IMG/VR virus record: IMGVR_UViG_3300010362_000012
Span: 20,425 to 84,424 of that record
From: a virus
Lineage: Duplodnaviria; Caudoviricetes
Strand: one strand, 5' to 3'
DNA: 64,000 nucleotides
Position numbers and translations under genes: made by a program. The notes beneath the pieces were generated by a model. That model ran no database searches and was not told the origin of the DNA. It was given only the letters and a program-made list of their open reading frames with translations. Below, piece after piece: positions 1 to 44,185 of the stretch (its first letter is position 1; every line of letters begins with the position of its first letter).

Positions 1-837
1 GACGCCGCCGCTGATCGTGCCGTTCGCGCCGGCGATCGAATCCACGGCACTCGTCCCACTGGTTTCTTGCAGCCGCCAATAGGCACTCGCGCCGTCGGCG
101 ATCACTTGCTTGGTGTAGCCGATTGGAGGCCCAGCCGCCGCGTGGGCGGACACTTGCGTCGCCGTCAGTGCGACCGGATAAAACGCGACATCATCGACGC
201 TCCCGATAAAATTATTCGGGGATGCGCCGCCAGCGGAGTACGATCCGATCGCGAGCGCCGTAGATGGCGTGCAATCCAAACCCGCCGTCCCGACATCGCT
301 TTGATTGTCGAGGACGCCATCGACGAACACGCGCACGCGATCATGCACGCCGTCATAGAGACGTTCCATCACGCCGATGACGTGCCGCCACGCGCCATTG
401 TTCAGGGTGTTCACATTGCCCGTGATGCTGCCTGACGTGACGCCATTTGAGAGCCGGAACGTAATTCGATGGGTAGCGTCCAGAGACAACGCGAACCCCG
501 CATTGGCGGATCCGGCGGTTTTGGTGTCAACGAAAAATTGCCCACCGCCAGCCGCTGAGTCCGTCGTTTTGATCCAACACTCGATGGAGAACCCTATCGC
601 CGCCGGGATCGGATAACTCAGCATCCCTGGCACGTTGACGTAATGCCCCGTGGCCCCGTCAAACGCCATCGCTTTATTGCCATCCTCGATGGCACCGACT
701 TGATTCAGCGTCACGCCGGCCGCAATCGTGCCGTTGCGACTGCCGATGCTGTCAGCCGCTGTCGTCCCAGACAGTTCCCCTAACCGCCAGTAAGCGACAG
801 CTCCATCGGCCGCAACAAGATCGGAGTACCGGCCCAT
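1..837 (-). CDS. LamG-domain virion protein, 5' part (mirror of 42740-44185, truncated by window edge)
   Basis: Mirror copy. Confidence 0.8.
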   Translation of the reverse strand, partial: MGRYSDLVAADGAVAYWRLGELSGTTAADSIGSRNGTIAAGVTLNQVGAIEDGNKAMAFDGATGHYVNVPGMLSYPIPAAIGFSIECWIKTTDSAAGGGQFFVDTKTAGSANAGFALSLDATHRITFRLSNGVTSGSITGNVNTLNNGAWRHVIGVMERLYDGVHDRVRVFVDGVLDNQSDVGTAGLDCTPSTALAIGSYSAGGASPNNFIGSVDDVAFYPVALTATQVSAHAAAGPPIGYTKQVIADGASAYWRLQETSGTSAVDSIAGANGTISGGV

Positions 838-874
838 CGTTTGCTATTCGCCTTGCATGTCCCGTACGCGGGCG

Positions 875-964
875 ATGAAGAAACACCAGAGCTTGATCGT
901 GATCGCGCTGATCTGTTTCGCCGTGGTGTTGCTCGTCCTGATCGTTTTTGTCCGACTCCAGTAA
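875..964 (+). CDS. 29-aa single-TM peptide (mirror of 42613-42702)
   Basis: MKKHQSLIVIALICFAVVLLVLIVFVRLQ. Confidence 0.5.
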   Translation: MKKHQSLIVIALICFAVVLLVLIVFVRLQ

Positions 965-971
965 GTCTTCT

Positions 972-1508
972 TTAGCTCTCGAGCGCGTACGTTAGCGCGA
1001 TGTCGATCGCCGTCGCCGTGGTGAAGCTGCTGCCCGTCTTCCCGATCGTGATCGCGGTGTTCGCATCGTTCTGCACAAACGAGGCGCCGTCGGCGAGGAC
1101 CGTGACGCCGGTTGAGCCAGGGCGCAGGACGGTTGACTGTGTCAGGTTCGCCTGCGCGAAGGTGACGAGCTTGACGCTCGCGCTGCTCTGCGTACCGAGA
1201 ATATCGACGGTCGTGCCCGCCGCGGCGGCACCACCGACCGCGATGGCCTGCACGTCGATCAATCGATACTTGCGGCCGGCGACGGCCGGCAGCAGCGTCA
1301 GGCCGGCGTTGACGTCGGCGATCGCGACGCGCGTACGGAGACTCCGCACTTGCGTCGCGGGGCTGCCGCTCGAACCCGACGTGCCGGTGCCGACGACGAG
1401 CTCGTTGGTCAGGCCATCGACGTACACGCCGTTCGCGTTCGGCGTGTTCGCGAAATCCGGCGGCGCCCCACCCGTCGCCGGCCCGCGCTCAATCCAGTGT
1501 TGCGGCAT
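972..1508 (-). CDS. Putative virion/capsid decoration protein (mirror of 42069-42605)
   Basis: Mirror copy. Confidence 0.55.
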   Translation of the reverse strand: MPQHWIERGPATGGAPPDFANTPNANGVYVDGLTNELVVGTGTSGSSGSPATQVRSLRTRVAIADVNAGLTLLPAVAGRKYRLIDVQAIAVGGAAAAGTTVDILGTQSSASVKLVTFAQANLTQSTVLRPGSTGVTVLADGASFVQNDANTAITIGKTGSSFTTATAIDIALTYALES

Positions 1509-1518
1509 GGAATCCTCC

Positions 1519-2100
1519 CTACGGCGCGGTGATCGCGAAGCCGTCGCCACCGTCCGCCGCCGCCGAAATCGTGAACGTATCGGCGAGCGTGACGAGCGCG
1601 AACCGCAGACCGTTCGCGACGGCGAGGCCGTTCGGGTTCACGTACAAGCCCTCGTAGAGCGTGCCGGGGTTGCCGCTCGACACGGCGCCAAGCGGAATCA
1701 CGAGACGGCTCGCGGCGGTCATGCCCGAGAGCGCGCCGTCCGTGCCGTCGTCGAAAAATTTCAAATAGCTGGCTGTCGAGGATCCGGCGACGTTCGTCTT
1801 GCGGATGTAGACACCATACAGCCGCGTCGCGATCAGGCCGTAGAGGCCGCCGGTGGACGCCGTGATCAGCCCGCTGGTCGAGTTGACGAGCGGCGTGAAG
1901 CGCGCCTGCGGCGCCTGGAGGTGCTGCGCCATCCATCGCCGCAAGCCATCGAAGGCCCGCTGCGCGCCGGGCGTCGCGCCGGCAAGCGCCATGTCCACGC
2001 GTTGCCAGATGGCGGACTCCGCTTCGATGGCGGCCGCCGCCGCCTGGTTCGCCCACAGATAGCCGTCGGGCGACTGCGTAAATTGCTTCGTCCAGTTCAT
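1519..2100 (-). CDS. Hypothetical virion protein (mirror of 41477-42058)
   Basis: Mirror copy. Confidence 0.65.
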   Translation of the reverse strand: MNWTKQFTQSPDGYLWANQAAAAAIEAESAIWQRVDMALAGATPGAQRAFDGLRRWMAQHLQAPQARFTPLVNSTSGLITASTGGLYGLIATRLYGVYIRKTNVAGSSTASYLKFFDDGTDGALSGMTAASRLVIPLGAVSSGNPGTLYEGLYVNPNGLAVANGLRFALVTLADTFTISAAADGGDGFAITAP

Positions 2101-2378
2101 CGGCCGTCTCCTCGTGATTGAGTTTTCCGACGCAGCGCCGCGATCGATCCGTTCGGGGACGGCGGCAGCTCGATGTCTTCCCGCTTCCTTGGGAGCAGCG
2201 ATTGCAATTTCAAGCCGACGCCGGCGAGCTTGTCGATCAGTCCCGGTTGCTGCGCGTACCAGTTCTGCAGCCAGTCCATCGTGGCCGCATCCTTGTCGGG
2301 CGGCGCCGGCGCCGGCATGCGCGACTCGCCCGACCAGAAGACATTGGGCGTAAACGGCCGGCGCGGGTCGTCGGGCAT
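2097..2378 (-). CDS. Hypothetical protein (mirror of 41199-41480)
   Basis: Mirror copy. Confidence 0.55.
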   Translation of the reverse strand: MPDDPRRPFTPNVFWSGESRMPAPAPPDKDAATMDWLQNWYAQQPGLIDKLAGVGLKLQSLLPRKREDIELPPSPNGSIAALRRKTQSRGDGR

Positions 2379-2707
2379 CAGTCCTTCTCGGTCACGGTGA
2401 ACGTCGCCGCACCCCGGCGGCCATCGGTCGTCGTCACCACGAGCTCGCCGCTCGTCGCGCCGTACGGCACGAGCGTCTGGATCACCAGCGGCGTCCAGAG
2501 CACGACGGGTGCCGGCACTTCATTGAGAAACAGCGTGCCCGGTTGATCGCCGAAGTCGGTGCCGGTGATCACAATCGCCGTGTGCTCCGGTCCACTGCTG
2601 GGATCAAGCGTGAACGCAAGCGTGGTCGGGTCGGCGATGGACATCCGCATCGAGGTCGGCACCGCTACATCATTCGGTTCGTCGTCGTGCTCGACTCGTT
2701 TCGTCAT
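2378..2707 (-). CDS. IPT/TIG domain protein (mirror of 40870-41199)
   Basis: Mirror copy. Confidence 0.7.
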   Translation of the reverse strand: MTKRVEHDDEPNDVAVPTSMRMSIADPTTLAFTLDPSSGPEHTAIVITGTDFGDQPGTLFLNEVPAPVVLWTPLVIQTLVPYGATSGELVVTTTDGRRGAATFTVTEKD

Positions 2708-3276
2708 GCGCTTGGCTCCGTGGGGGGCGGCAGGTCGCTGGGTCTTCCGGCGTTGAGGACTCGCTCGCCTGTTCGGGCCTGAAGACTTCGCCACGCGTCA
2801 CCTGTTGCGTGATAGACGTCGTCGCGCACCTCGCGATCGATTCCGCGGCGCTCGGCGGCATCGCGTTCATCCAGCATCTCGCCGTATTTCGATCCGCCTT
2901 CGAACATCGCCTTCTTGACGCGATCCTCCGTGAGCGGCCCGCCTTCGACCGCCCAGGTATCCCGCGCCGCGAGCTCGCCGACGACGTAGGTGAGAAAGCC
3001 TTCGCTCCAGCCGTCGGTACTGGCGATCCACGTCACCGGCACCAGGTCATGCTTGACGAACATGGCCGTGTCGTTCTGGTCGTCGATGATCGCCTCACCC
3101 GTCAGGCCTTTGCTGTAGCGTTTCACCCGCGCCAACCACCAGACGGGTTTTTTGCGACCGGGCAGCATCCGCAAATCCGCATCGAAGGCCCACAATCCCT
3201 GCTGCCACCAGAGCGGTGGCGGCTCGAGGTTGAAGGGATTCAGATCCCGCACGTAGATCGCGCCCAGCTCGATCAT
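2704..3276 (-). CDS. Hypothetical head-module protein (mirror of 40301-40873)
   Basis: Mirror copy. Confidence 0.65.
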   Translation of the reverse strand: MIELGAIYVRDLNPFNLEPPPLWWQQGLWAFDADLRMLPGRKKPVWWLARVKRYSKGLTGEAIIDDQNDTAMFVKHDLVPVTWIASTDGWSEGFLTYVVGELAARDTWAVEGGPLTEDRVKKAMFEGGSKYGEMLDERDAAERRGIDREVRDDVYHATGDAWRSLQARTGERVLNAGRPSDLPPPTEPSA

Positions 3277-3671: not shown

Positions 3672-3683
3672 GAGCAGTTCCCT

Positions 3684-4217: not shown

Positions 4218-4249
4218 GCTCTCCTCGTCAGTCGTCGAATCTCGATTCG

Positions 4250-9346: not shown

Positions 9347-9697
9347 TCACCTCGCCGGCGCCGGGAGTCGTCCGTAATTCACCGTCCCATCCGGATGCCA
9401 GCCGGCGGGCGCGTGCGCGGGGTTGTCTTCGAAAATCCCCATCGCGGAGATCTGCTCGAGCAGATCGCTCGCGCTACTCGCGGGCGTCGCGGCCGGCGTC
9501 ACCTGGAGGGTCGGGACCGGGATGTCGATGTTCAGAATCTGCTTCAGCAGCAGCGCGCGTTCCGTCTCGAGCTGATTGACGCGCGCGCAGAGGAAGGCGA
9601 TGGTCGTTTGTTGCGTCTCGACGCGGCGGGTCAGTTCCTCACGGCGGGCGCGTTCAGCGGCGAGATCCTCGAGCATCTTGAGGCGAGCGCCCCACAT
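9347..9697 (-). CDS. Coiled-coil hypothetical protein (mirror of 33880-34230)
   Basis: Mirror copy. Confidence 0.65.
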   Translation of the reverse strand: MWGARLKMLEDLAAERARREELTRRVETQQTTIAFLCARVNQLETERALLLKQILNIDIPVPTLQVTPAATPASSASDLLEQISAMGIFEDNPAHAPAGWHPDGTVNYGRLPAPAR

Positions 9698-21783: not shown

Positions 21784-22006
21784 GGAGGCCTCCAAAATAT
21801 CATGGTCCCAGCTTCTTCGTCAAGCCTGCTCTCTCTGACGCTCCACCGCACGGGGCTGCACACTCCGATTCTCGCGATCCCTCGGCGTGCCAGGGCGTGC
21901 AACCGCTTAGCCGCTTGGCGACCACTCGAGCGCGCACGCTTAGCCGCTTGGCGCCCGTGGAGCTCGCGTTTTCTGCTTGACATGTCACTCTTGTCTCTGC
22001 TAGCGC

Positions 22007-22130: not shown

Positions 22131-22355
22131 ATGCCGACGCCGCACCAGCAAGCTCGCGCCGTTATCGATCAGATGTATCGCGCTATCGGCCAGGCCCGCA
22201 CGCAGCACGACGTGCTGTCAATCGATGCGGACGGCCTGTTCTTGTGGGCGGCGACGCTCGACGCGTATCTCGAGCTGATTGCCGATGAGTTACAGCACTA
22301 CCACGACTTGAAAGCGGCAACGGCAGCGATCGAAACACCCGGCCTGCATCATTGA
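22131..22355 (+). CDS. Hypothetical protein (74 aa), first gene from the axis
   Basis: AAAAGGGG RBS-like sequence before ATG 22131; helical amphipathic sequence. Confidence 0.6.
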   Translation: MPTPHQQARAVIDQMYRAIGQARTQHDVLSIDADGLFLWAATLDAYLELIADELQHYHDLKAATAAIETPGLHH

Positions 22356-22367
22356 GGTGAGGCTTAC

Positions 22368-22499
22368 ATGCGGAATCTGCATCTCGTGCTCTACGTCCTC
22401 GCGTTTGTTTTGTTCTTGCTCGCGGCGTGGCCGGTGCCCTCGAGGGTCAATCTCATCGCAGCGGGGCTCGCGTGTCTCACGCTCACCCTAATCGTGTGA
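22368..22499 (+). CDS. 43-aa membrane peptide, two hydrophobic segments
   Basis: MRNLHLVLYVLAFVLFLLAAWPVPSRVNLIAAGLACLTLTLIV; GAGGTGAGG RBS; below ORF-track cutoff. Confidence 0.6.
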   Translation: MRNLHLVLYVLAFVLFLLAAWPVPSRVNLIAAGLACLTLTLIV

Positions 22500-22665
22500 A
22501 GAAAAAGCTCGACCGCGCCGGCGTTGATGCTGGACGGGGCAGGAAGACCTCGACCAATCATCGTGAGGGGCGCCGGCGCGGTCCGCGGCGGATGTGGGTT
22601 CACGCGATCGACTGTGACCTCGGACGCGATTGCACGTGTACGCCCAAGCTCGTACCACGGAAACT

Positions 22666-23328
22666 ATGAGACTGCTTGATCTCTACTGCGGCGCCGGCGG
22701 CGCTGCCGTCGGCTATCATCGCGCCGGCTTCGACGACATCGTCGGCGTCGATATTCAGTCGCAGCTACGCTACCCCTTCGAATTCGTGCAGGATGACGCG
22801 CTCGCATATGTCGCGCGGCATGGGCACGAGTTCGACGCGATTCATGCCAGCCCGCCCTGTCAGCGTTACTCGTGGTCCGCTCGACGCTGGCGTGAGATCG
22901 AGCGCGCGGACCTCATCGAGCCGACACGCCAGGCGCTCGAGCACACCGGGCGGCCCTTCATCATCGAGAACGTGATCGGTGCGCCGCTCGCGCGACAGGT
23001 GCTGCTCTGCGGCGCGATGTTCGGGTTGCGTGTGCTCCGACATCGGATGTTCGAAAGTAACGTCCTGCTGCTTCAGCCGCGCCATCCGCAACACCGCGGG
23101 CGCGTGACAACCGGCGACTACGTGACGGTTGCCGGCCATGGCGGCGATAACGTGCGCGGCAACGGCTCGCGCGCGATCAAGCGCGCCGCCATGGGCATCG
23201 ACTGGATGACCGATCGGGAACTGAACGAAGCCATTCCGCCGGCCTATACCGAATTCCTCGGCCGGCAGCTTCTCGCCTGTCTCGACGACGAAGCCTGTCA
23301 CGCGCGCGTCTTGGCCCTTCGAACGTGA
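22666..23328 (+). CDS. Orphan C5 cytosine DNA methyltransferase
   Basis: Motif I LDLYCGAGG, motif IV HASPPCQ, motif VI IIENV, RHR, C-terminal EAIPPAYTEFLG. Confidence 0.88.
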   Translation: MRLLDLYCGAGGAAVGYHRAGFDDIVGVDIQSQLRYPFEFVQDDALAYVARHGHEFDAIHASPPCQRYSWSARRWREIERADLIEPTRQALEHTGRPFIIENVIGAPLARQVLLCGAMFGLRVLRHRMFESNVLLLQPRHPQHRGRVTTGDYVTVAGHGGDNVRGNGSRAIKRAAMGIDWMTDRELNEAIPPAYTEFLGRQLLACLDDEACHARVLALRT

Positions 23329-23560: not shown

Positions 23561-23744
23561 CTTGAAGGGGTTCGTCGTCGGTGCCAAAGAACCCCCGCCA
23601 CCCTGGGACGCTGTCGAGCGCCGCGTCGGCCCAGCCGATCGCCGCTCGAATGGACACGATCGTCGATGGGACGCGTCCATTGGACGGCGCCGCGGAAGGA
23701 TGGATCGTCGGAAAAATGCCTCGAATGCGCGCTGGCGACCGTAA
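23550..23744 (+). CDS. 64-aa peptide with repeated ERR/DRR motifs
   Basis: ERRVGPADRRSNGHDRR...MDRRK; overlaps the upstream stop. Confidence 0.45.
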   Translation: MASDLKGFVVGAKEPPPPWDAVERRVGPADRRSNGHDRRWDASIGRRRGRMDRRKNASNARWRP

Positions 23745-27054: not shown

Positions 27055-28233
27055 TCACGATGTCGATGGTTGCCAGCAACCTTGCACGGTAACGCCCAGG
27101 CCGATCGAGTCCTGACTGCAGCGTTGGACGGCTTCGTCGCTGCAGGCGTCGCGCGTGTATTCGTACGGGACCGTTTCCCAGAGACAGAGCACCGGACGGC
27201 CACGGCGGCGACTCGCGTCGTGGAACCAGTCCGGTGCGCTGATCGACGGCGCAGTCGCGTTCGGATGCGTCAGGTTGCTGCTATCGATGAAGCCCTGCGC
27301 GAGCGGCATCGGCGTGCCGGGCGGCAGGAAGCGGTCGCAGATCTCGATCCAGCGATCCCACCAGCGCGGCTTGCCGTGCGCGTCGAGGCCCGGTCCCCCA
27401 CTGACGTAGGCGGGGCCGTTGTTGCCGTGATCGGTCTGATAGAGCAAGCCGTCGATCTCCACGCCAGCGCTCTTGTAGTACGCGCCCTGTTCGTCGCCTT
27501 CGTACGGATCCTCGACCTCGAGCCAGGCGCCTTCGTCGGGATTCTGATCGCTTTGCTTCCAATAGAGCTCGGTCGGGTTCCAGTCGGGCGTGGTTGGCTT
27601 GTTCGGTTTGTAGCTGCCCCAGTAGCCGGCCGGCGTGCAGCGCGTCGGCTGCAGCCAGAGCGCGAGCAGCCCGTCGTCGCCGACGTGTGATCGCATCAGC
27701 TTCAGCGCGTCGTCCATGTTCTTGCAGTTGTACGCGCCGCCCCGATCGAGATTCTGCTCGTAGCCGGCGCAGTACCACGCATCCTTCGCCAGGTGCGCGA
27801 CGGCGTCGAGGGTCCGCGCCATCTGCCCGTTGTAAATTTCCTGATGGGTGCCTCCGTCCGCGGTGCCGACGAGAATGATCGGCGTGAAGCCCTCCGCGAC
27901 GATGTAGTCACAGAGTGCGCCGTAGTCGGCGAGATTGGTGCGGAAATCGTAGGTCGCGCCCGCCATGTAGCCGGGATAGCCGCCCTGCACGGCGAGCTGG
28001 ATGGCATTCACGCCGAGTGATCGCTTAACCTCGAGGCAGCGATCGAGTCGCGTGAAATCGCGGCTCTGCCACCACACGCCGAAGTAAATCGGATCGAACA
28101 CGACCTCGTCTTCATCATCGCGATGACTGCAGTAGCTCGCCAGAAAATTGCGCCGGTCGCGCGGTGGCCGCGGGACTGTCATGGCCGCGCTGTTGATCAC
28201 GAGGGCCGTCTCTACGCGCGTGAGCGTTCGCAT
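27055..28233 (-). CDS. TIM-barrel glycoside-hydrolase-like protein (clan GH-A pattern), candidate endolysin
   Basis: GVNAIQL, GFTPIILVG, putative acid/base GYEQN, putative nucleophile RPVLCLWET. Confidence 0.55.
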   Translation of the reverse strand: MRTLTRVETALVINSAAMTVPRPPRDRRNFLASYCSHRDDEDEVVFDPIYFGVWWQSRDFTRLDRCLEVKRSLGVNAIQLAVQGGYPGYMAGATYDFRTNLADYGALCDYIVAEGFTPIILVGTADGGTHQEIYNGQMARTLDAVAHLAKDAWYCAGYEQNLDRGGAYNCKNMDDALKLMRSHVGDDGLLALWLQPTRCTPAGYWGSYKPNKPTTPDWNPTELYWKQSDQNPDEGAWLEVEDPYEGDEQGAYYKSAGVEIDGLLYQTDHGNNGPAYVSGGPGLDAHGKPRWWDRWIEICDRFLPPGTPMPLAQGFIDSSNLTHPNATAPSISAPDWFHDASRRRGRPVLCLWETVPYEYTRDACSDEAVQRCSQDSIGLGVTVQGCWQPSTS

Positions 28234-30827: not shown

Positions 30828-31340
30828 GTGCGCGGGTGGGAACGCGTCACGCCGACCGATCTCGCCCGCCTCGCCGCGCCGAAACAAAGGCCTGCTGAGG
30901 CACGGCAGAAGTACCGCGCCGAGCCCTGCATCGTCACACCTGACGGCACGCTATTCACCGCGGCCGACATCACCACCGCAGAATTCGCTCAGCAACGCAT
31001 CGGCACGGGCACGCTGAAAGAACGCGCCGCGCGCTGCGCGATCGTCGGCCTCTGGTTCGCCTCGACGAAGGAAGGCCGGCGCTATCTCGAGCTCAAGCGG
31101 CTCGAGCAGGCGAAGGCGATCAGCGATCTGCAGTGCCAGGTCGAATACGATCTCACCGTCGTGTCGATCGTCGATGGCCGCACGCACGTCGTCGGCAAGT
31201 GGATCGCGGATTTCGTGTATCGTCGCGCCGGCGAGGTCGCGTTCGTGACCGAAGACACGAAGGGCGTGAAGACGAAGCTCTATCGACGATCGCGCCGCCA
31301 CTTCGAAGCGCAGTACGGGATGCCGATCCTCGAAACATGA
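30828..31340 (+). CDS. DUF1064-family PD-(D/E)XK-like protein
   Basis: FASTKEGRRYLELK, LQCQVEYDL, IADFVY, VTEDTKGVKT. Confidence 0.8.
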   Translation: MRGWERVTPTDLARLAAPKQRPAEARQKYRAEPCIVTPDGTLFTAADITTAEFAQQRIGTGTLKERAARCAIVGLWFASTKEGRRYLELKRLEQAKAISDLQCQVEYDLTVVSIVDGRTHVVGKWIADFVYRRAGEVAFVTEDTKGVKTKLYRRSRRHFEAQYGMPILET

Positions 31341-31456
31341 GCGCCAATGACCGCGACGAGATTCTCTGTCCACGTTGCAACCGTTGGACGTGGCATCACG
31401 GCTGGTGCGTACACTGTTTCGTCTTGATCACCAGGCGGATCACGAGCCGATCATGA
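31337..31456 (+). CDS. 39-aa Cys/His-rich peptide
   Basis: CPRC..W..HHGWCVHC; ATGA overlaps at both ends. Confidence 0.45.
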   Translation: MSANDRDEILCPRCNRWTWHHGWCVHCFVLITRRITSRS

Positions 31457-33012
31457 CGACGCTCGGCTGGGTGCCGGAATTTCGCTGCTGTTTTTGCGAC
31501 AGCGAATTCATTCAGCGCACGGTGGACCGCGTCGCCGCCTGGGCGTGCCCGACCGACGAGTGTTTCGAGCGCCAACTCGCGTACAAACAGCTCACCACCG
31601 ACAAGCGGCTGTTTTTTCTGCCGCTGCCGAAGCAAGTCGAGCTCCTCGACGCGATCGAATCGCAGCAGTACGCGGCGATCGCCATCGGCGGGCATCGGAA
31701 TTCGGCGAAATCGCATCTGTTACGGATGGTCGCGTATCGCTACTGCGGCAAATTCGAGAATTTCAGCGTGTTGTTCCTGCGGCGCACCATGCCGGAGCTG
31801 CGCCTGAATCACATGCGCTACGCGATCCGCGAAACCAAGCAGATCGGCGCGAAGTACATGACCAACTCAGTCGTCTGGGACAACGACAGCGAGCTGACGT
31901 GGGGGAGTTGCTTCGAACCCGATGCCTACAAGGCCTACATCGGCGGCGACGTCGATTTGATCGTCTTCGATCAGCTCGAGGAATTCGAACAGACCCAATT
32001 TGTCGAGATCATGCCCTCGACGGGCCGCACGCGGAAGCGATCGACCTGGCGCGGCCTCGTCCTGGCCGGCGAAAACCCTGGCGGTCCGCTTTCGGCGTTC
32101 GTCGAGGAGATGTTCATCGACAAAACGTTCGATCGCACGAAATTTCCGGACTGGGATCCGTCGCAGTACCACTTCGTGGCCGCGAAACTCGAGGACAACC
32201 CATACGCGGACCCGCGGTACGTGCAAAACCTGGCCGGGCTCTCACCGGAGCGGCGCGCGATGTTCCGCTTCGGCCGGCGCGACGTGTTCCCGCGCCAATA
32301 TTTCAAAACCTTCGTCCGGCACGACCGCGTGCAGCACATCGATGTGCCGCACGACGTCCCGCGCCTCTGCGGCCTGCACTGGGGCTTTTTCCGACCGGGG
32401 ATCATGCTTTGGGCGGTCGTCCTGCCCGACGGGCGGCTCTACATCGAGCGCGAGCACACGTTCAACGAAACGGTCGCGAGCGATGTCGCCAAAGCGATCA
32501 GCCTGATCAACGCGCAATCGAAATTGACGATGAGCCAGGTGTGGGGCAACCCGCTGAAGACCGTTCCCGATGATGAAATCGGCGAGCACACGTTCGAAAC
32601 GCTCTACCTGCACGGCGTGCCGGTGATCCGGTCCGATCACGATCCGATCAACGGGTGGCAACGACTCCAGCACTGGTTCCAGCCGATGATCACGCCGGCC
32701 GGCGAGCAGCCGGCGCTGATTGTGAGTCCGGACTGCTCGACGCTCATCCGGACCGTGCCGCAGCTCCTGCAGGCGACGGCGAATCCCGAAGATCTCGACG
32801 ATGACGGACCGGTGCAGGCGGCCAAGGCGCTGCGCTATCTCGTGATGTCGCGGCCGGAACCGCCGGGCGTCGCGCCGAAACCGGAGGGACGCGATCTGTC
32901 GAAGCTCGACGAGCGCACGCGCGCGGAGATTGAATACCTGCGTTCCGTCGAGCGCGACGAGCCGCGGGAGGTCGCAGCCTACAGCCTCGGCGACTTCTGG
33001 GGGACCACATGA
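31453..33012 (+). CDS. terL: Terminase large subunit; nuclease residues substituted
   Basis: Walker A GGHRNSAKS, FLRRTMPEL, Walker B LIVFDQ, coupling motif ENPGG, AKLEDNPY, C-terminal ALRY; upstream of portal. Confidence 0.88.
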   Translation: MTTLGWVPEFRCCFCDSEFIQRTVDRVAAWACPTDECFERQLAYKQLTTDKRLFFLPLPKQVELLDAIESQQYAAIAIGGHRNSAKSHLLRMVAYRYCGKFENFSVLFLRRTMPELRLNHMRYAIRETKQIGAKYMTNSVVWDNDSELTWGSCFEPDAYKAYIGGDVDLIVFDQLEEFEQTQFVEIMPSTGRTRKRSTWRGLVLAGENPGGPLSAFVEEMFIDKTFDRTKFPDWDPSQYHFVAAKLEDNPYADPRYVQNLAGLSPERRAMFRFGRRDVFPRQYFKTFVRHDRVQHIDVPHDVPRLCGLHWGFFRPGIMLWAVVLPDGRLYIEREHTFNETVASDVAKAISLINAQSKLTMSQVWGNPLKTVPDDEIGEHTFETLYLHGVPVIRSDHDPINGWQRLQHWFQPMITPAGEQPALIVSPDCSTLIRTVPQLLQATANPEDLDDDGPVQAAKALRYLVMSRPEPPGVAPKPEGRDLSKLDERTRAEIEYLRSVERDEPREVAAYSLGDFWGTT

Positions 33013-34231: not shown

Positions 34232-36652
34232 ATGGCGGTCGCGTCAGGGACGTTTGGTCGTGCTCCCGCCGTCGTGACACCCGGCGGCGCCGGGGATCCC
34301 GACAGGCCGCTGCTCGAGCACTTCGACAAAGCCAAACGCGAATGTTTCGCCGACCGCTGGCGCTATGAACGCGTGTGGACGCGCGCGATTCACTACTGCA
34401 ACATGCGCCAGTGGCTCGGCGTCTACGACCGCAACGGCGGTTGGATGGACAGCCGCGTCGCGAAGGGCGTGCCGCGGCCGGTGACGAGCAAGCCGAAAGA
34501 AGGCCTGCAGGCAATCCGCGCGATGTTCACGGCGGCGACGTTGGGCGTGGACGTGCGGCCGTTGAAGAACGACGTCCAGTCGATGACGACGGCGACGACC
34601 GCCGACAAACTCGCGCCGGTGTTGTATATCGCCAACGACATGGACCAGGTGCTGCACGAAGGCGATTACTGGTTCATCGTCACGGGCAATGTGATTTATC
34701 ACGTCAGCTACGACGATGACGGGACGTACCTCCAAGTGCCGTTCGAACGCTGTCTCTCGTGCGGCTACGAAGTGACGAGCGACGTGATCGCGAAAGCCGG
34801 GCAGAAATGTCCGATGTGCGGCAAACCCGGCCCGTTTGTGCGCGCGGTCGGTCCCGACGGGCGGCCGCGGATGGACGTGCGCGCCAACGGCCACACCGTC
34901 ACCACCGCGCTCTCGCCGCTCGAGGTCGCGTTCCCCTTCATGCGGCCACGCTGGAGCCTCGTCGATCGGCTGATCCGGATGCGCTGGCGCACGAAGGCCT
35001 ACTATGAATCGCAGCCGGCGCTCGAGCCGTACGTGAAGCGCATCACGTTCGCGAAAACCTCGACCGAGCGGTCGCTGCAGATTTTCCAGTCGCTGCCGTT
35101 CCAGACCGAGCTCAGTCCGAACCTGCTCGGCACGGCCGCGGGCAGCGGCGACGAAGAAGGCGTCGCCGAATACGAGCTCTGGGAACGCCCGACGCCGATG
35201 CGGCCCGACGGGTTCGTGATGCGCGTCGCCGGCGACAGCACGCCCGTCGTGCTCCATCTCGAGGAGACGGAGGGCTTGCCCGGCCCACTGCCGTATCACG
35301 AAGCGAACGGTAATCCGCTCTGGACGTTTCACCACGCAGCGTACGAACACGTCGGCGGGCGCGTGCTCGGCACCGGCGCGCTCGATCCCGCGATGGGGAA
35401 GTTCGATCAGCTGAATCGCCTCGACTCGATCGTCGAGATGATGATGACGCGGATGGCGATTCCGCAGATCTTGAAACCCAAAGGCCAGGACATCCAGTGG
35501 CTCGGCGATTCGCCGGCCATGCCGGGCCTCATCGCCGAATACGCGCCGGCGCCGGGCGGCGGCAAACCGGAACAGTGGCCCGGCCAGGATCCGCCGCGGT
35601 CGTGGGTGCAGCTCCGGCTGCAGATCAGCGAGGAGATTGACGCGGCGCTCGGCACGAACGACGTGCTGCGCGGACGCAAACCGCCGAACGTCGAAGCGTT
35701 CTCCGCGATGCAGTTGCTCGTCGAGGCGGGCGAAGCGCGCTTCGCCGGGGCGTTCAAATCGCGCGCGCTCGCGTTCCGCGATCTGACGCGCTCGCAGATT
35801 GAAATCGAACGCGAATTCGGTCCTGAGAAACGCGTGCAGTCGGTGATCACGCCCGGCCGCGGGTATAACTTCCAGACCTTCCAGCGTGCGGATCTCGACG
35901 GCGAGGTCACGTTCGAAGTGGCGGACGGCAGCACCAAGCCGAAAACTCAGCTCGCCGAGCGCGCGTCGATCGAGCATCTCAAACAACTCGGCGGCGTCGA
36001 TATCAACAATCCCGATACGCAATACGCGGTCTACCAGAAACTCGGACAGACCGATCTGATTCCGGCGACCGACAATCAGCATCAGGCGGCGCTACAGAAT
36101 CAGGAACTGTTCATGAACTGGATTCGCACGCCTGCTGCGTTGACGTACGTTCCGCAGGCTGCACCTCCGGCGGCGGGGGCGGAGGGAGGGATTCCGCCTC
36201 CGCCACCGGATCCAAGCACGGATCCGACCTACCCGTTTGTCTTGCAGCCGTGGTACGAGGTCCCCATCCACCGCATCGAGCTCGTCAAGTGGGCGGTCAG
36301 CGACGAGGCCATCGAGTTGTTCAAGATGATTCCGAAGGCGCGGTACTTCGTGGCGAAATATCTCGGCGAGATGGATCAGAAGATCGGCAACGCCACGACG
36401 CCGCCGCCAGAGAAACCGAAGATCTCCTACAGCTTCGGCAGCGAGGACATGGCCGCCGATCCGGCTGTGCGTCAGGCCTTCCTCGCCGCCGCGGACATTC
36501 CGCCGCCGGCGTCGCGCACCGCGCCCGGCGAACCGGGCGGCCCGCCGCAAGGCGCCGGCCTGGCGATGGCGAACAGCAATCAGAATACGGCGCCGATCGG
36601 CAACCAGGCGCAGCCGGCCATGCCGGCCGTCGGCGCGGGACCGGGGACGTAG
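34232..36652 (+). CDS. Portal protein (P22/podovirus-like) with Zn-ribbon insertion
   Basis: 806 aa between terL and scaffold/MCP; Q..LNR..S.I, GTNDVLRG...AFSAMQLLVE portal-like segments; Pro-rich tail. Confidence 0.8.
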   Translation: MAVASGTFGRAPAVVTPGGAGDPDRPLLEHFDKAKRECFADRWRYERVWTRAIHYCNMRQWLGVYDRNGGWMDSRVAKGVPRPVTSKPKEGLQAIRAMFTAATLGVDVRPLKNDVQSMTTATTADKLAPVLYIANDMDQVLHEGDYWFIVTGNVIYHVSYDDDGTYLQVPFERCLSCGYEVTSDVIAKAGQKCPMCGKPGPFVRAVGPDGRPRMDVRANGHTVTTALSPLEVAFPFMRPRWSLVDRLIRMRWRTKAYYESQPALEPYVKRITFAKTSTERSLQIFQSLPFQTELSPNLLGTAAGSGDEEGVAEYELWERPTPMRPDGFVMRVAGDSTPVVLHLEETEGLPGPLPYHEANGNPLWTFHHAAYEHVGGRVLGTGALDPAMGKFDQLNRLDSIVEMMMTRMAIPQILKPKGQDIQWLGDSPAMPGLIAEYAPAPGGGKPEQWPGQDPPRSWVQLRLQISEEIDAALGTNDVLRGRKPPNVEAFSAMQLLVEAGEARFAGAFKSRALAFRDLTRSQIEIEREFGPEKRVQSVITPGRGYNFQTFQRADLDGEVTFEVADGSTKPKTQLAERASIEHLKQLGGVDINNPDTQYAVYQKLGQTDLIPATDNQHQAALQNQELFMNWIRTPAALTYVPQAAPPAAGAEGGIPPPPPDPSTDPTYPFVLQPWYEVPIHRIELVKWAVSDEAIELFKMIPKARYFVAKYLGEMDQKIGNATTPPPEKPKISYSFGSEDMAADPAVRQAFLAAADIPPPASRTAPGEPGGPPQGAGLAMANSNQNTAPIGNQAQPAMPAVGAGPGT

Positions 36653-38001: not shown

Positions 38002-39327
38002 ATGGCTGGACCCGGATCAGATGCTGCGACAGAGGACGGCCTCCTCAAAACGACCTACGAGGATGTCATCGCCGAAGGCGTGCTGAAAAAGTTTCAGCTC
38101 CGCGACGCATTCAAACCCAAAGATTCCCCCTGGGACGGCGGGCGCGGAAAAGAGTGGAGCGCGCACGTCGAGAGAAACAACTCCCCGATGGCCGTCGGCT
38201 CCGATAGCGCGATCCCGGTCGCCGACAATCAGAAGTACATCACCGGGTTCATCACGCAGCGCAAGATCATGGCGCGGTGGCGTGTCACGCAGGAACAACT
38301 CGATGACACGCAGTCACGCGAGGGCGCGTATCGATCGACACGCTCGGAGAACATGGAGCGTCTCATCGATGACATCGCCTATCGAGAAGAATTTTACCTG
38401 GGGAGTGATGGGCGGGGCGTCTTCGCGATTGTCGATGCTACCACATCGGGCACGACGCTCGAGCTCAATTCCCCCGGCAACGTCTCCTCGACCGGCGTCG
38501 CGATCACGAGCGCGTTCGGCAATCGCTTCATCAAGCGCGGCATGACGCTCGCTGCGATCAATCCCGCAAACGGTGTCATCCGCACGAATACGCCGAAAGT
38601 CACGGCAGTCAACAGCGACGGCACCGACGTGACGGTGTCGGCCGCGCCGAGCTGGACGACGGGCGACTACGTGGTGCAGGCGGCGAACACGTCCGTCACC
38701 GATGCGCTCGATACCGCGTACGAGAAAGCGCCCTGGGGCATCACCGCGCTCATCGATGACGGGACCTACCGACAGAACTATTTCGGCGTCGATCGCGCGC
38801 TCTACCCGAACTACACGTCCTACGTCTCGGCCTCGACCGGCGCGTTGTCGTTCGATCTGCTGCAGCGCGTGAGCGACATCGTCAACCAGCGACTCGACGG
38901 CGAGGTCAATGCGATCTGGTCGCATCACTCGGTGCGTCGCGTCTACATCCTGCTGACCCAGGCCGATCGCCGCTACGCCGATCAATCGAGCCGCATGAAT
39001 CCCGACGGCGGCACGCGCGCGTTCCAGCAGGAAGACCTGACGATGGGGTCCGTCGCGTACAAAGCGATCCGCACCCTGCCGCTGCGAAGCATGTTCCTCG
39101 TGGACACGACCGGCGGCGACTTCGTGAGGTACACCAGCGAGAAAGGCAAGTGGGTGAGCGGCACCAGCGGCGAGATCCTCGTCCGAGATGGAACCGGCGT
39201 GGCAGCGCGCCACAGTTGGGAGGCGTGGTATTACAAGCGCTACAACCTGTTTTGCCGCAATCCTGGCAAGTGCGCGCGGCTCGACGGCCTAACTGGCATG
39301 ACGTTCGTTGTCGTGCGTGGTGAATAG
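38002..39327 (+). CDS. Major capsid protein (HK97 fold presumed)
   Basis: 441 aa after scaffold; composition and synteny typical of podovirus coat proteins; GAGG RBS. Confidence 0.8.
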   Translation: MAGPGSDAATEDGLLKTTYEDVIAEGVLKKFQLRDAFKPKDSPWDGGRGKEWSAHVERNNSPMAVGSDSAIPVADNQKYITGFITQRKIMARWRVTQEQLDDTQSREGAYRSTRSENMERLIDDIAYREEFYLGSDGRGVFAIVDATTSGTTLELNSPGNVSSTGVAITSAFGNRFIKRGMTLAAINPANGVIRTNTPKVTAVNSDGTDVTVSAAPSWTTGDYVVQAANTSVTDALDTAYEKAPWGITALIDDGTYRQNYFGVDRALYPNYTSYVSASTGALSFDLLQRVSDIVNQRLDGEVNAIWSHHSVRRVYILLTQADRRYADQSSRMNPDGGTRAFQQEDLTMGSVAYKAIRTLPLRSMFLVDTTGGDFVRYTSEKGKWVSGTSGEILVRDGTGVAARHSWEAWYYKRYNLFCRNPGKCARLDGLTGMTFVVVRGE

Positions 39328-39893: not shown

Positions 39894-39905
39894 AGGGAAC
39901 TGCTC

Positions 39906-40873: not shown

Positions 40874-41199
40874 CGAAACGAGTCGAGCACGACGACGAAC
40901 CGAATGATGTAGCGGTGCCGACCTCGATGCGGATGTCCATCGCCGACCCGACCACGCTTGCGTTCACGCTTGATCCCAGCAGTGGACCGGAGCACACGGC
41001 GATTGTGATCACCGGCACCGACTTCGGCGATCAACCGGGCACGCTGTTTCTCAATGAAGTGCCGGCACCCGTCGTGCTCTGGACGCCGCTGGTGATCCAG
41101 ACGCTCGTGCCGTACGGCGCGACGAGCGGCGAGCTCGTGGTGACGACGACCGATGGCCGCCGGGGTGCGGCGACGTTCACCGTGACCGAGAAGGACTGA
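40870..41199 (+). CDS. IPT/TIG domain protein
   Basis: LDPSSGPEHTAIVITGTDFG...VPYGATSGELVVTT. Confidence 0.7.
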   Translation: MTKRVEHDDEPNDVAVPTSMRMSIADPTTLAFTLDPSSGPEHTAIVITGTDFGDQPGTLFLNEVPAPVVLWTPLVIQTLVPYGATSGELVVTTTDGRRGAATFTVTEKD

Positions 41200-41480
41200 T
41201 GCCCGACGACCCGCGCCGGCCGTTTACGCCCAATGTCTTCTGGTCGGGCGAGTCGCGCATGCCGGCGCCGGCGCCGCCCGACAAGGATGCGGCCACGATG
41301 GACTGGCTGCAGAACTGGTACGCGCAGCAACCGGGACTGATCGACAAGCTCGCCGGCGTCGGCTTGAAATTGCAATCGCTGCTCCCAAGGAAGCGGGAAG
41401 ACATCGAGCTGCCGCCGTCCCCGAACGGATCGATCGCGGCGCTGCGTCGGAAAACTCAATCACGAGGAGACGGCCGATGA
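41199..41480 (+). CDS. Hypothetical protein
   Basis: TGATG coupling. Confidence 0.55.
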   Translation: MPDDPRRPFTPNVFWSGESRMPAPAPPDKDAATMDWLQNWYAQQPGLIDKLAGVGLKLQSLLPRKREDIELPPSPNGSIAALRRKTQSRGDGR

Positions 41481-42058
41481 ACTGGACGAAGCAATTTACG
41501 CAGTCGCCCGACGGCTATCTGTGGGCGAACCAGGCGGCGGCGGCCGCCATCGAAGCGGAGTCCGCCATCTGGCAACGCGTGGACATGGCGCTTGCCGGCG
41601 CGACGCCCGGCGCGCAGCGGGCCTTCGATGGCTTGCGGCGATGGATGGCGCAGCACCTCCAGGCGCCGCAGGCGCGCTTCACGCCGCTCGTCAACTCGAC
41701 CAGCGGGCTGATCACGGCGTCCACCGGCGGCCTCTACGGCCTGATCGCGACGCGGCTGTATGGTGTCTACATCCGCAAGACGAACGTCGCCGGATCCTCG
41801 ACAGCCAGCTATTTGAAATTTTTCGACGACGGCACGGACGGCGCGCTCTCGGGCATGACCGCCGCGAGCCGTCTCGTGATTCCGCTTGGCGCCGTGTCGA
41901 GCGGCAACCCCGGCACGCTCTACGAGGGCTTGTACGTGAACCCGAACGGCCTCGCCGTCGCGAACGGTCTGCGGTTCGCGCTCGTCACGCTCGCCGATAC
42001 GTTCACGATTTCGGCGGCGGCGGACGGTGGCGACGGCTTCGCGATCACCGCGCCGTAG
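41477..42058 (+). CDS. Hypothetical virion protein
   Basis: AGGAG RBS; beta-rich C-terminus. Confidence 0.65.
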   Translation: MNWTKQFTQSPDGYLWANQAAAAAIEAESAIWQRVDMALAGATPGAQRAFDGLRRWMAQHLQAPQARFTPLVNSTSGLITASTGGLYGLIATRLYGVYIRKTNVAGSSTASYLKFFDDGTDGALSGMTAASRLVIPLGAVSSGNPGTLYEGLYVNPNGLAVANGLRFALVTLADTFTISAAADGGDGFAITAP

Positions 42059-42068
42059 GGAGGATTCC

Positions 42069-42605
42069 ATGCCGCAACACTGGATTGAGCGCGGGCCGGC
42101 GACGGGTGGGGCGCCGCCGGATTTCGCGAACACGCCGAACGCGAACGGCGTGTACGTCGATGGCCTGACCAACGAGCTCGTCGTCGGCACCGGCACGTCG
42201 GGTTCGAGCGGCAGCCCCGCGACGCAAGTGCGGAGTCTCCGTACGCGCGTCGCGATCGCCGACGTCAACGCCGGCCTGACGCTGCTGCCGGCCGTCGCCG
42301 GCCGCAAGTATCGATTGATCGACGTGCAGGCCATCGCGGTCGGTGGTGCCGCCGCGGCGGGCACGACCGTCGATATTCTCGGTACGCAGAGCAGCGCGAG
42401 CGTCAAGCTCGTCACCTTCGCGCAGGCGAACCTGACACAGTCAACCGTCCTGCGCCCTGGCTCAACCGGCGTCACGGTCCTCGCCGACGGCGCCTCGTTT
42501 GTGCAGAACGATGCGAACACCGCGATCACGATCGGGAAGACGGGCAGCAGCTTCACCACGGCGACGGCGATCGACATCGCGCTAACGTACGCGCTCGAGA
42601 GCTAA
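42069..42605 (+). CDS. Putative virion/capsid decoration protein
   Basis: GGAGG RBS; Ala/Thr/Gly-rich beta sandwich. Confidence 0.55.
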   Translation: MPQHWIERGPATGGAPPDFANTPNANGVYVDGLTNELVVGTGTSGSSGSPATQVRSLRTRVAIADVNAGLTLLPAVAGRKYRLIDVQAIAVGGAAAAGTTVDILGTQSSASVKLVTFAQANLTQSTVLRPGSTGVTVLADGASFVQNDANTAITIGKTGSSFTTATAIDIALTYALES

Positions 42606-42612
42606 AGAAGAC

Positions 42613-42702
42613 TTACTGGAGTCGGACAAAAACGATCAGGACGAGCAACACCACGGCGAAACAGATCAGCGCGATCACGATCAAGCTCTGGTGTTTCTTC
42701 AT
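42613..42702 (-). CDS. 29-aa single-TM peptide, antisense to the structural operon
   Basis: MKKHQSLIVIALICFAVVLLVLIVFVRLQ fills the intergenic gap. Confidence 0.5.
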   Translation of the reverse strand: MKKHQSLIVIALICFAVVLLVLIVFVRLQ

Positions 42703-42739
42703 CGCCCGCGTACGGGACATGCAAGGCGAATAGCAAACG

Positions 42740-44185
42740 ATGGGCCGGTACTCCGATCTTGTTGCGGCCGATGGAGCTGTCGCTTACTGGCGGTTAGGGG
42801 AACTGTCTGGGACGACAGCGGCTGACAGCATCGGCAGTCGCAACGGCACGATTGCGGCCGGCGTGACGCTGAATCAAGTCGGTGCCATCGAGGATGGCAA
42901 TAAAGCGATGGCGTTTGACGGGGCCACGGGGCATTACGTCAACGTGCCAGGGATGCTGAGTTATCCGATCCCGGCGGCGATAGGGTTCTCCATCGAGTGT
43001 TGGATCAAAACGACGGACTCAGCGGCTGGCGGTGGGCAATTTTTCGTTGACACCAAAACCGCCGGATCCGCCAATGCGGGGTTCGCGTTGTCTCTGGACG
43101 CTACCCATCGAATTACGTTCCGGCTCTCAAATGGCGTCACGTCAGGCAGCATCACGGGCAATGTGAACACCCTGAACAATGGCGCGTGGCGGCACGTCAT
43201 CGGCGTGATGGAACGTCTCTATGACGGCGTGCATGATCGCGTGCGCGTGTTCGTCGATGGCGTCCTCGACAATCAAAGCGATGTCGGGACGGCGGGTTTG
43301 GATTGCACGCCATCTACGGCGCTCGCGATCGGATCGTACTCCGCTGGCGGCGCATCCCCGAATAATTTTATCGGGAGCGTCGATGATGTCGCGTTTTATC
43401 CGGTCGCACTGACGGCGACGCAAGTGTCCGCCCACGCGGCGGCTGGGCCTCCAATCGGCTACACCAAGCAAGTGATCGCCGACGGCGCGAGTGCCTATTG
43501 GCGGCTGCAAGAAACCAGTGGGACGAGTGCCGTGGATTCGATCGCCGGCGCGAACGGCACGATCAGCGGCGGCGTCACGCTCAACGTGCCGGGGCCGTAT
43601 GCGGGTTCAGTCGCGTATCGCTTCAACGGATCGACGGGACGTGTGACGGTGGCGACCGGGACGTACCAAACATTCGGGACGGGGCCGGTGACGCTGGAAT
43701 GCTGGGTGCGGTATCTGGGCGGCGGGAATCAGGATGTCGTGGACATGAAGGGGGCGGGATCATCGGTCGCTGGCATCCGCATTGTGACGGACACCTCGCC
43801 AGGACTGTATGGTCAGGTGTCAGATGGCACGACGCTTTGGGCCAGTGCGGTCGGTGTGCCAACACTCTTTACCGACCTCCGCTGGCGCCATCTTGTCGCG
43901 GTGGTCTCGCGCACGGCGAACACGATCACGCTCTACAGCAACGGCGTGGCGATTGGTCCGGTGACGGCTATCACGGCGGGGGTCAATATCGGCACCACGG
44001 CGGCGACCGAACTGGGCGGCTATGCGGGCACGATTGTGCTGAACGGTGACCTCGCCGAAGTGGCTGTCTACAAGGCCGCGCTGACGCCGGCGCAGATCGC
44101 CAATCACTACAACCTCGGCACCGGAGGCCAAGGTGGCACACCGGCCGAACTCCGCACACGCTATCGGTGGCGCGATGCCGCCTGA
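42740..44185 (+). CDS. Tandem LamG/concanavalin A-like domain virion protein
   Basis: Two repeats AYWRL.E.SGT.A.DS...WRH(V/L)...G..DDVA.Y..ALT..Q...H. Confidence 0.88.
   Translation: MGRYSDLVAADGAVAYWRLGELSGTTAADSIGSRNGTIAAGVTLNQVGAIEDGNKAMAFDGATGHYVNVPGMLSYPIPAAIGFSIECWIKTTDSAAGGGQFFVDTKTAGSANAGFALSLDATHRITFRLSNGVTSGSITGNVNTLNNGAWRHVIGVMERLYDGVHDRVRVFVDGVLDNQSDVGTAGLDCTPSTALAIGSYSAGGASPNNFIGSVDDVAFYPVALTATQVSAHAAAGPPIGYTKQVIADGASAYWRLQETSGTSAVDSIAGANGTISGGVTLNVPGPYAGSVAYRFNGSTGRVTVATGTYQTFGTGPVTLECWVRYLGGGNQDVVDMKGAGSSVAGIRIVTDTSPGLYGQVSDGTTLWASAVGVPTLFTDLRWRHLVAVVSRTANTITLYSNGVAIGPVTAITAGVNIGTTAATELGGYAGTIVLNGDLAEVAVYKAALTPAQIANHYNLGTGGQGGTPAELRTRYRWRDAA

Follow-up and report, generated by a model that had tools for sequence, protein, structure and literature searches.

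A doubled contig of a soil tailed phage folds at a conserved DNA end: probable turning molecules and a possible resolvase route

Introduction

To our knowledge, the virion DNA ends of the tailed phages studied so far are made by the terminase nuclease or, in phi29-like phages, by terminal proteins. The hairpin ends known to us occur only in plasmid prophages that carry a protelomerase, and we know of no tailed phage with hairpin ends that lacks this enzyme.

The DNA analyzed here, a window of 64,000 nucleotides from the IMG/VR record IMGVR_UViG_3300010362_000012, turns back on itself at a single point. Positions 21789–64000 (plus strand) comprise exactly one arm of the record, a 42,212-bp part of the genome of an uncultivated tailed soil phage, recognized by Pfam and PHROGs matches and incomplete at its far end. 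We propose that the locus be read in three layers: a contig that was written out twice, a real and conserved DNA end beneath it, and molecules that would turn at this end through a resolvase mechanism without a protelomerase. To the three layers taken together we assign a probability of slightly over one half (about 0.55).

Results

The perfect zero-spacer palindrome of at least 43.5 kb that had been noticed in the window was confirmed and turned out to be larger. The mirror symmetry is free of mismatches all the way to the window edge, 21,788 bp on each arm, and the full IMG/VR record, one contig of 84,424 bp, is its own reverse complement with two arms of 42,212 bp. The length of the record is even, its axis has no spacer and the palindrome reaches both contig ends, one of them being position 64000 of the window. 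The axis lies between positions 21788 and 21789, with ...TTTTGGAGG on one side and CCTCCAAAA... on the other, and coincides with the conserved end of the phage linear DNA. Positions 1–21788 are a redundant mirror copy of 21789–43576 (exact reverse complement, 0 mismatches), which arose when the assembler wrote out a palindromic unitig in full. The label "inverted terminal repeats" (ITR) attached to the record in IMG/VR is the 84,424-bp palindrome itself.

As the sequence-only reading had stated, the axis falls in a non-coding gap of about 340 bp per arm and is flanked by repeats. The distance from the axis to the first gene (22131–22355, plus strand) is 342 nt; this gene encodes 74 aa with no function assigned and was the query used to locate other assemblies of the phage. 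The repeats are two direct copies of 17–20 nt at 21904 and 21937 (CGCTTAGCCGCTTGGCG(A/C)CC, 33 bp spacing, together 21904–21956 on the plus strand), placed in the 342-nt non-coding end region and partly conserved in relatives. Since a crude GC3 gene call puts the non-coding share of the arm at approximately 11%, the non-coding position of the axis alone is only about a one-in-nine coincidence. The arm carries an early region, genes for the large terminase (TerL), portal, major capsid, tail and fibre, and a leftward operon of small genes. From about position 23595 it is collinear with a related phage genome of 49.8 kb (G001). A C5 cytosine DNA methyltransferase gene (22666–23328, plus strand; PF00145) forms, with two small genes upstream of it, a cassette of about 1.4 kb that is absent from G001.

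The 84.4-kb palindrome does not represent a molecule; the assembler wrote out one 42.2-kb unitig twice. Both SPAdes and MEGAHIT output palindromic unitigs in full, and unitigs are unsafe at low coverage (Rahman & Medvedev 2022, PMC9528984). The read depth over the phage is about 9–11x. The unitig ended in an inverted loop, that is, in sequence reading round a turn, and was written forwards and then backwards to give the 84.4-kb contig, and IMG/VR then labelled the self-complementary contig as ITR. In its source code MEGAHIT folds palindromic unitigs, the behaviour being tied to older MEGAHIT. An ENA MEGAHIT k141 contig of the same phage (7,421 bp) consists of 7,350 nt of the arm plus 71 nt, an overhang that equals (k+1)/2 = (141+1)/2 and lies past the axis by gene-offset arithmetic, the value of 71 nt following from an offset of 21,717 that stays the same across six genes and k from the k141 contig names of a sister assembly. 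The ENA assembly may share reads with the IMG/VR record and is in that case not independent read evidence. The Logan contig (k=31) from what is probably the source run ends 103 nt before the axis, with no strand-changing joint listed.

At the far end of the contig no fold-back was found. The contig breaks there inside a gene, whose 3' part (63956–64000, minus strand; open frame PPDYCHPSDHGMEG) comprises 14 codons and a TAA overlapping the ATG of the last complete gene of the arm. The latter (63339–63956, minus strand, 205 aa) has its start 44 nt from the contig end, and the Logan contig of the source run starts 44 nt upstream of this same gene, matching the end of the arm. In a 40.4-kb ENA contig a 176-aa gene ends at that ATG, and the contig, with identical gene spacing, extends 5,415 bp past the far end of the arm, adding 13 more genes; G001 also extends about 5.2 kb beyond this position. 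The far end of the arm is a contig break and not a genome end, and the arm represents an incomplete phage genome with a full length of at least about 47.6 kb. The two ends of the arm, the far one not being a true end, share only 2 nt. No direct terminal repeat was detected in the arm or in G001, and no contig bearing joined ends was present in the viral and genome collections searched.

The same end was found in related genomes. The contig of G001, which comes from another sample (JGI 3300028293), starts with AGCCTGTAAATATCATGG, 2 nt beyond the base homologous to the axis. A second relative from a different sample, L031 (JGI 3300036841), starts with an 18-nt mirrored overhang, so that the start of its contig is a perfect 36-nt palindrome, centred between AGG and CCT within 1 nt of the axis-homologous base; its first gene likewise begins at nt 343 of the contig. 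The contigs of the three phages end 2, 18 and 71 nt past the same centre, and among the contigs of the phage and its relatives none reads through from the axis into non-mirrored or unique sequence; such read-through had been named beforehand as speaking against a biological end. As to the earlier preference for such an end over a random chimera, the end is supported by G001 and L031, whereas the argument from the non-coding location carries no more than the one-in-nine weight given above. Altogether, it is well supported that the axis is a real, site-specific and sequence-specific end of the phage linear DNA. Mirrored overhangs, as head-to-head junctions or hairpins may leave, are present in the contigs of this phage and of L031 but not in that of G001, which has two plain ends, unlike each other and free of mirrored overhangs. 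These two plain ends fit ordinary open ends and count against the hairpin reading.

Close to the end, at 21794–21823 on the minus strand, lies a conserved sigma-70 promoter-like box, TTGACG-N16-GATATT, which points outwards and is separated from the DNA end by 6–8 nt. It is the sole promoter-like site within 912 bp, against 0.2 expected, and stands at the matching place in G001 and L031 (3/3 phages). It may serve as a promoter or mark the end for recognition. In a more distant relative, L037, which has a degenerate TerL nuclease site, the end was uninformative.

The TerL gene (31375–33012, plus strand; phrog_979) encodes a protein that keeps the Walker A lysine and the Walker B aspartate but has all conserved acidic positions of the nuclease substituted (H335, N392, V480-Q481, K484). 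It was aligned with the TerLs of three cultured phages and with 104 deep homologues; among the 104, these positions carry D in 93, D in 76, D in 93, H in 89 and D/E in 92, and here they are H, N, V, Q and K. The nuclease residues are also lost in the TerLs of G001, of another relative (L010) and of the four nearest cluster representatives. Judged from these alignments, TerL appears to lack a competent nuclease of the Terminase_6 kind with its RNase H-like site, and the site is degenerate throughout the clade, over a deep divergence. Directly upstream, in the usual position of the small terminase, lies a gene (30828–31340, plus strand) for a predicted DUF1064 PD-(D/E)XK nuclease (PF06356, E=4e-12; phrog_190 'Holliday junction resolvase', E=2e-20). 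Holliday-junction resolvases are common in phages, where they are used for debranching DNA, so the presence of DUF1064 is weak evidence and its resolvase role comes from homology annotation only. DUF1064 proteins are predicted to be nucleases akin to T7 endonuclease I, TnsA and archaeal resolvases (PMC1189080).

Discussion

The contig-level evidence suggests that some molecules in the sample probably do turn at the end; these would be covalently closed hairpins or else head-to-head junctions formed in replication. The phage accounts for about 0.01% of a 3.8-Gb soil library, which makes it seem implausible that two copies of this end were ligated into a chimera.

The alternative that survives best, although we regard it as unlikely, accepts a real conserved end, open and either blunt or cohesive, and ascribes the mirrored reads to an intramolecular library artefact followed by the assembler at a dead end where it had no competitor. 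Such an artefact could arise if, in end repair or whole-genome amplification, the polymerase snapped back or switched templates on reaching the template's 5' end. The plain ends of G001 and the Logan contig stopping before the axis speak for this explanation, as does the depth of about 10x, at which one or two artefact reads suffice. However, two different phages, each from its own sample, show this turn despite the low depth, and we counted this for real turning molecules. We know of no step in standard sheared, A-tailed libraries that produces zero-spacer fold-backs at native ends, there is no complement near the terminal strand for snap-back priming, and the degenerate nuclease site of TerL is left unexplained.

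It is much less probable that the axis is a natural internal palindrome of a genome that continues, circular or concatemeric, and that the contigs broke or folded because of the way assemblers handle palindromes. The outward promoter-like box would be sensible if transcription ran into neighbouring DNA, but none of the three contigs goes from the shared centre into non-mirrored sequence, an assembly with k≥55 is not broken by a 36-nt palindrome, and the 42-kb arm has no fork where a natural palindrome would stop. Similarly improbable is that the axis marks no biological end at all but a random fold-back chimera or a gap in coverage. Low depth favours it, and whole-contig palindromes do recur as a metagenome-assembly artefact (PMC9528984), but the probability that the G001 end and the L031 centre both fell within 1 nt of the homologous base by chance is negligible, and a conserved motif adjoins the end; on the sequences of the relatives' ends, this explanation appears close to refuted. 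Hardly tenable is a linear plasmid-prophage telomere of the N15 type, made by a protelomerase on a palindromic tel site: a zero-spacer palindrome at a non-coding end is what reading round such a telomere is expected to give, but a six-frame search with PF16684 at E≤10, covering the 42.2-kb arm of the record and G001, gave no match (the largest gene in the 5.4 kb by which the phage continues past the arm encodes 301 aa), Pfam and PHROGs gave no protelomerase, integrase or partition matches among about 50 ORFs, the left end of G001 shares no 8-mer with its right end read as reverse complement, nor any inverted repeat, and plasmid records contained nothing that matched the capsid protein. The parallel with N15, phiKO2, PY54, Borrelia and Agrobacterium drawn in the sequence-only reading is not supported: no protelomerase domain was found in the arm or in G001, and the G001 ends have no inverted similarity.

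Under the three-layered reading, the turning molecules would not be made by a protelomerase, and a pox- or rudivirus-like route is favoured. Replication would yield palindromic junctions, and the DUF1064 nuclease, a PD-(D/E)XK enzyme of the Holliday-junction-resolvase type, would resolve or cut them at a fixed place. TerL with its degenerate nuclease site would serve only as the packaging motor, and open-ended molecules such as the one represented by the G001 contig would be what results from processing or what the virion carries. We tentatively extend this, as a reading less likely than not, to a clade of soil tailed phages that might replicate through head-to-head junctions, form covalently closed hairpin ends without a protelomerase by means of a resolvase acting at the terminal box, and pack unit-length DNA with a nuclease-less TerL.

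For the database, the record holds twice the real sequence yet is incomplete, and its 'ITR / complete genome' label is wrong. Doubled records of this kind can distort the completeness estimates for relatives, and this one should be halved between 21788 and 21789. For phage biology, a site-specific end, turning reads, a degenerate TerL nuclease and a resolvase-type nuclease at the small-terminase position would together constitute a new way to make and package phage ends.

Compared with known systems, the record resembles the palindromic-unitig artefacts of de Bruijn assemblers (PMC9528984) in being its own reverse complement, of even length, with zero spacer, extended to both contig ends and of low coverage, and in that a second assembler yields one arm plus (k+1)/2 nt. 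It differs from them in the position of the loop: rather than sitting at random or on a short palindrome arisen by chance, the loop is found again at the homologous base of other phages, which indicates that something in the DNA end itself triggers it. With N15, phiKO2, PY54, Borrelia ResT and Agrobacterium TelA it shares a perfect palindrome in non-coding DNA as the result of reading round the end, whereas no protelomerase, tel half-site symmetry, partition or lysogeny genes were found here. HK97-like cos phages with HNH or accessory-nuclease terminases likewise have a separate nuclease gene adjoining the terminase, which could help to make the ends, but their TerLs keep the catalytic residues and the accessory enzyme is HNH rather than PD-(D/E)XK resolvase-like. 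As in phi29, whose packaging ATPase handles a unit-length genome with no cutting, the packaging ATPase here is apparently unable to cut DNA, judging by its residues, and the ends would then be made before or independently of the motor. However, gp16 of phi29 lacks the whole nuclease domain, and phi29 uses terminal proteins and a protein-primed polymerase; the TerL of the present phage retains the nuclease domain, although its active site is degenerate, and neither a terminal protein nor a polymerase B came to light.

Poxviruses and rudiviruses (SIRV) differ in their long inverted terminal repeats and in having no terminase, whereas the ends of G001 carry no repeat and this phage packages by terminase; the poxvirus resolvase is RuvC-like as opposed to the predicted DUF1064 PD-(D/E)XK enzyme, and a closed end is, for this phage, a candidate structure. 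The likeness lies in a zero-spacer turn at a linear end, a predicted nuclease of the junction-resolvase type and the absence of a protelomerase from the sequences searched. In addition, the promoter-like element here points at the apex, which recalls the telomere-resolution sequence of vaccinia virus, known to act as a late promoter. If the proposed reading is true, it would place a pox- or rudivirus-like end strategy in a terminase-packaging bacteriophage.

The Mirror Axis in Related Phages

Comparison with two other phages points to the axis at window 21788|21789 as a real, conserved DNA end. G001 is a contig of a different phage from a different sample, with ~70–80% nucleotide identity in conserved genes, and its start, AGCCTGTAAATATCATGG..., aligns with the start of the arm, CCTCCAAAATATCATGG.... 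In the third phage, L031 (Ga0376036_0030085, JGI 3300036841), the first gene begins at nt 343, exactly as in the arm. The L031 contig opens with GCACATGATATTTATAGG|CCTATAAATATCATGTGC, a perfect 36-nt palindrome that reaches the contig start and has the homologous base as its centre. All three phages carry an outward TTGACG-N16-GATATT box, which ends 6–8 nt from the DNA end (7, 8 and 6 nt), and it is the only such site in the arm and in L031. Read-through past the axis into non-mirrored sequence was seen in no contig of any relative. Hence, the same axis was recovered in related genomes, as the contig start in G001 and the palindrome centre in L031.

Exact-match scans of viral and metagenome contigs for the tip and far-end sequences returned nothing, and neither did a junction-pattern scan of viral and genome contigs. 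Contigs L026 and L028, obtained in a degenerate terminal-motif scan, were AT-rich and showed no similarity to the phage, and were discarded as chance matches. L030 and L032 fall short of the end region, and the contig ends of L037 and L038, which encode more distant large terminases (TerL) with degenerate nuclease sites, were uninformative. L037 (Logan SRR29078136_4970, 47,364 bp) encodes a 49% identical TerL whose start, nt 9,587, lies as far from the beginning of its contig as TerL does from the axis in the arm. This contig starts inside a gene, without a palindrome, and its early region codes for a DNA polymerase III beta clamp and a DUF87 ATPase.

Extent and Origin of the Palindrome

The symmetry about the axis is exact: the 21,788 bp on either side of it pair with 0 mismatches. 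The window corresponds to bases 1–64000, reverse-complemented, of a one-contig assembly of 84,424 bp, which from end to end is a perfect palindrome with arms of 42,212 bp each; window 21789–64000 is thus exactly one arm, and window 64000 is the contig end. The 43.5-kb palindrome noted in the sequence-only reading was therefore borne out and is larger, spanning all 84,424 bp. The IMG/VR class of the record, 'inverted terminal repeats', simply denotes this whole-contig palindrome.

The genes proximal to the axis were also found on a 7,421-bp contig of the ENA assembly ERZ27257142, which may derive from the same reads as the IMG contig. They are collinear with the window, and the offset of 21,717 is constant over six genes, so this contig starts 71 nt beyond the axis. 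The contig names of the sister assembly give k=141, and 71 is exactly (141+1)/2, which we take to be the overhang that MEGAHIT leaves on trimming a palindromic unitig to a single arm. An alternative in which these 71 nt were true read-through and the arm ends were adjacent in a circle had rested on a promoter at one arm end and a promoterless gene at the other; it was dropped because 71 equals (k+1)/2 and the far end is a break inside a gene. An overhang of 18 nt, like that of L031, is expected from a large-k assembler if a turn is crossed, by up to 18 nt, in a few reads; a full fold-back like the present one results once the loop is closed by reads or by contigs of lower k.

In the doubled de Bruijn graph, a unitig that terminates in a single inverted loop is palindromic, palindromic unitigs are written out in full by SPAdes and MEGAHIT, and unitigs are unsafe at low coverage (Rahman & Medvedev, PMC9528984). 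Word depth was ~9–11x in the probable source run, SRR5215473, and ~4x in a second run. Altogether, the palindrome was produced by assembly, one of its two arms is redundant, and the database entry should be cut to half its length.

At window 23611, the C of the IMG contig is contradicted by the Logan contigs of both runs, in which all of the depth (8.7/8.7 and 3.9/3.9) supports G; the C probably reflects a consensus error in the record, or else a minor allele. Several other sites showed a minor strain at ~3–4x in the source run. CheckV completeness was 73% for the 84-kb doubled record and 47% for the 49.8-kb G001, giving an expected genome of ~106–115 kb. We speculate that the reference used by CheckV was also a doubled palindromic 'ITR' contig; completeness would then be underestimated by half throughout the clade.

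Gene Content and Far End of the Arm

The arm (GC ~64%) encodes a tailed phage, with TerL at window 31375–33012, the portal at 34232–36652 and the major head protein at 38002–39327. It also codes for structural proteins with Laminin_G and TIG domains, a tail fibre, a replication-initiator-like HTH protein, a C5 DNA methyltransferase and many small genes of unknown function. A cassette of ~1.4 kb (window 22131–23328), composed of genes for a 74-aa protein, a 43-aa membrane peptide and the C5 methyltransferase, is absent from G001, in which the homologous non-coding end region is directly followed by the homologue of window ~23595. A 392-aa protein with no Pfam or PHROG match, encoded on the minus strand in the early region (27055–28233), is the largest non-structural product left unexplained.

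Between the start of the last gene (63339–63956, minus strand) and the contig end lie 44 nt. They hold the 3' portion of an upstream gene, in open frame, with a TAA stop that overlaps the ATG of the last gene. Exact-protein look-ups found the same phage in ERZ27257142, on a 40,401-bp contig in which the genes are spaced identically (two gene starts lie 2,273 bp apart, and the coordinates of six further genes match). That contig runs 5,415 bp past window 64000, a stretch that holds eleven small genes besides genes of 176 aa and 301 aa; this 5.4 kb of the phage (13 genes, the largest of 301 aa) is known from the gene table alone. G001 (IMGVR_UViG_3300028293_000008, 49,793 bp) likewise extends ~5.2 kb past the homologous gene. 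The Logan contig of SRR5215473 ends at the same base as the IMG contig, so the break at window 64000 is probably a fork between strains. With the contig broken inside a gene and the ENA contig reading on, the far end is not a genome end; the arm is incomplete, and the full phage genome must span about 47.6 kb or more.

Beyond the far-end homologue, G001 encodes a 386-aa DUF3560 protein (L024 5092–6252; G001 45092–46252) and several unknowns. A search for relatives of the right-end gene of G001 returned G001 itself as the sole hit.

The Terminase Nuclease Site

TerL is at most 29% identical to that of any cultured phage, placing this phage far from cultured ones, and has no sequence-detectable match in the PDB; the type of end is therefore not inferable from relatives. 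We compared TerL with those of three cultured phages and with 104 full-length deep homologues. TerL retains both the lysine of Walker A and the aspartate of Walker B. At the nuclease site, H335 replaces a residue that is D in 93/104 homologues and N392 one that is D in 76/104; V480-Q481 stands in place of D-H (93/104 and 89/104), and K484 in place of D or E (92/104). The loss is common to G001, the relative L010 and the four nearest 50%-cluster representatives (38–49% identity), and the canonical set is present in homologues of ≤36% identity. By this distribution, the nuclease site has been degenerate across deep divergence, although the protein is conserved in other respects.

The N-terminus of TerL has a Cys-rich, zinc-ribbon-like extension (CCxC ... 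CPxxEC), absent from the cultured-phage homologues, and its Walker B motif reads D-Q (D-E in 97/104 homologues). Both features are common to close clade members.

The Kind of End

The end is not of the N15 kind. Six-frame searches of the record and of G001 at E≤10 detected no protelomerase catalytic domain, and no protelomerase, integrase or partition match was obtained among ~50 ORFs. The two ends of G001 have no direct or inverted repeat in common, the arm has neither a direct terminal repeat nor inverted similarity between its ends, and the capsid protein matched no plasmid record. The covalently closed hairpin telomere proposed in the sequence-only reading thus found no support in its N15-type form.

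The mirrored junction can come only from DNA that truly turns, whether as a head-to-head dimer or a closed hairpin, or from an intramolecular artefact. At ~0.01% of a 3.8-Gb soil library, the phage is too rare for two of its ends to have plausibly been ligated head to head, and this route was rejected. We favor a real end with truly turning DNA molecules, at a probability of roughly 0.55. In the Logan contigs of two runs, neither a joint nor a loose end was seen at the tip, which these contigs miss by 103 and 226 nt; as contigs only, at 4–10x, they are neutral on the turn. The stop of the source-run contig 103 nt before the axis nevertheless counts among the weaknesses of the favored reading. 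A real end with an artefactual turn is considered rather unlikely. Little weight is left to a random chimera, which cannot give the recurrence across G001, L031 and the arm, and the earlier preference for a biological end is supported by the relatives ending or turning at the homologous base. A natural internal palindrome, also of small weight, would not stop three contigs 2, 18 and 71 nt beyond one centre. The plain ends of G001 fit open-ended molecules, so the simplest way to reconcile the observations would be a mixture of open forms (virion) and turning forms (replicative or closed).

A Possible Mechanism

The gene adjoining TerL on its upstream side, the usual position of the small terminase, encodes a DUF1064 protein that matches PHROG 190, 'Holliday junction resolvase'. 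DUF1064 is a predicted PD-(D/E)XK nuclease, akin to T7 endonuclease I, TnsA and archaeal resolvases (PMC1189080). Replication may leave palindromic junctions at the ends, which the resolvase-type nuclease would resolve or cut where the conserved terminal box directs it, and TerL would then package the DNA without cutting. Resolvases are common in phages, which weakens this proposal. In vaccinia, the telomere-resolution sequence is a late promoter pointing at the hairpin, and the outward promoter-like box beside the phage apex recalls this arrangement.
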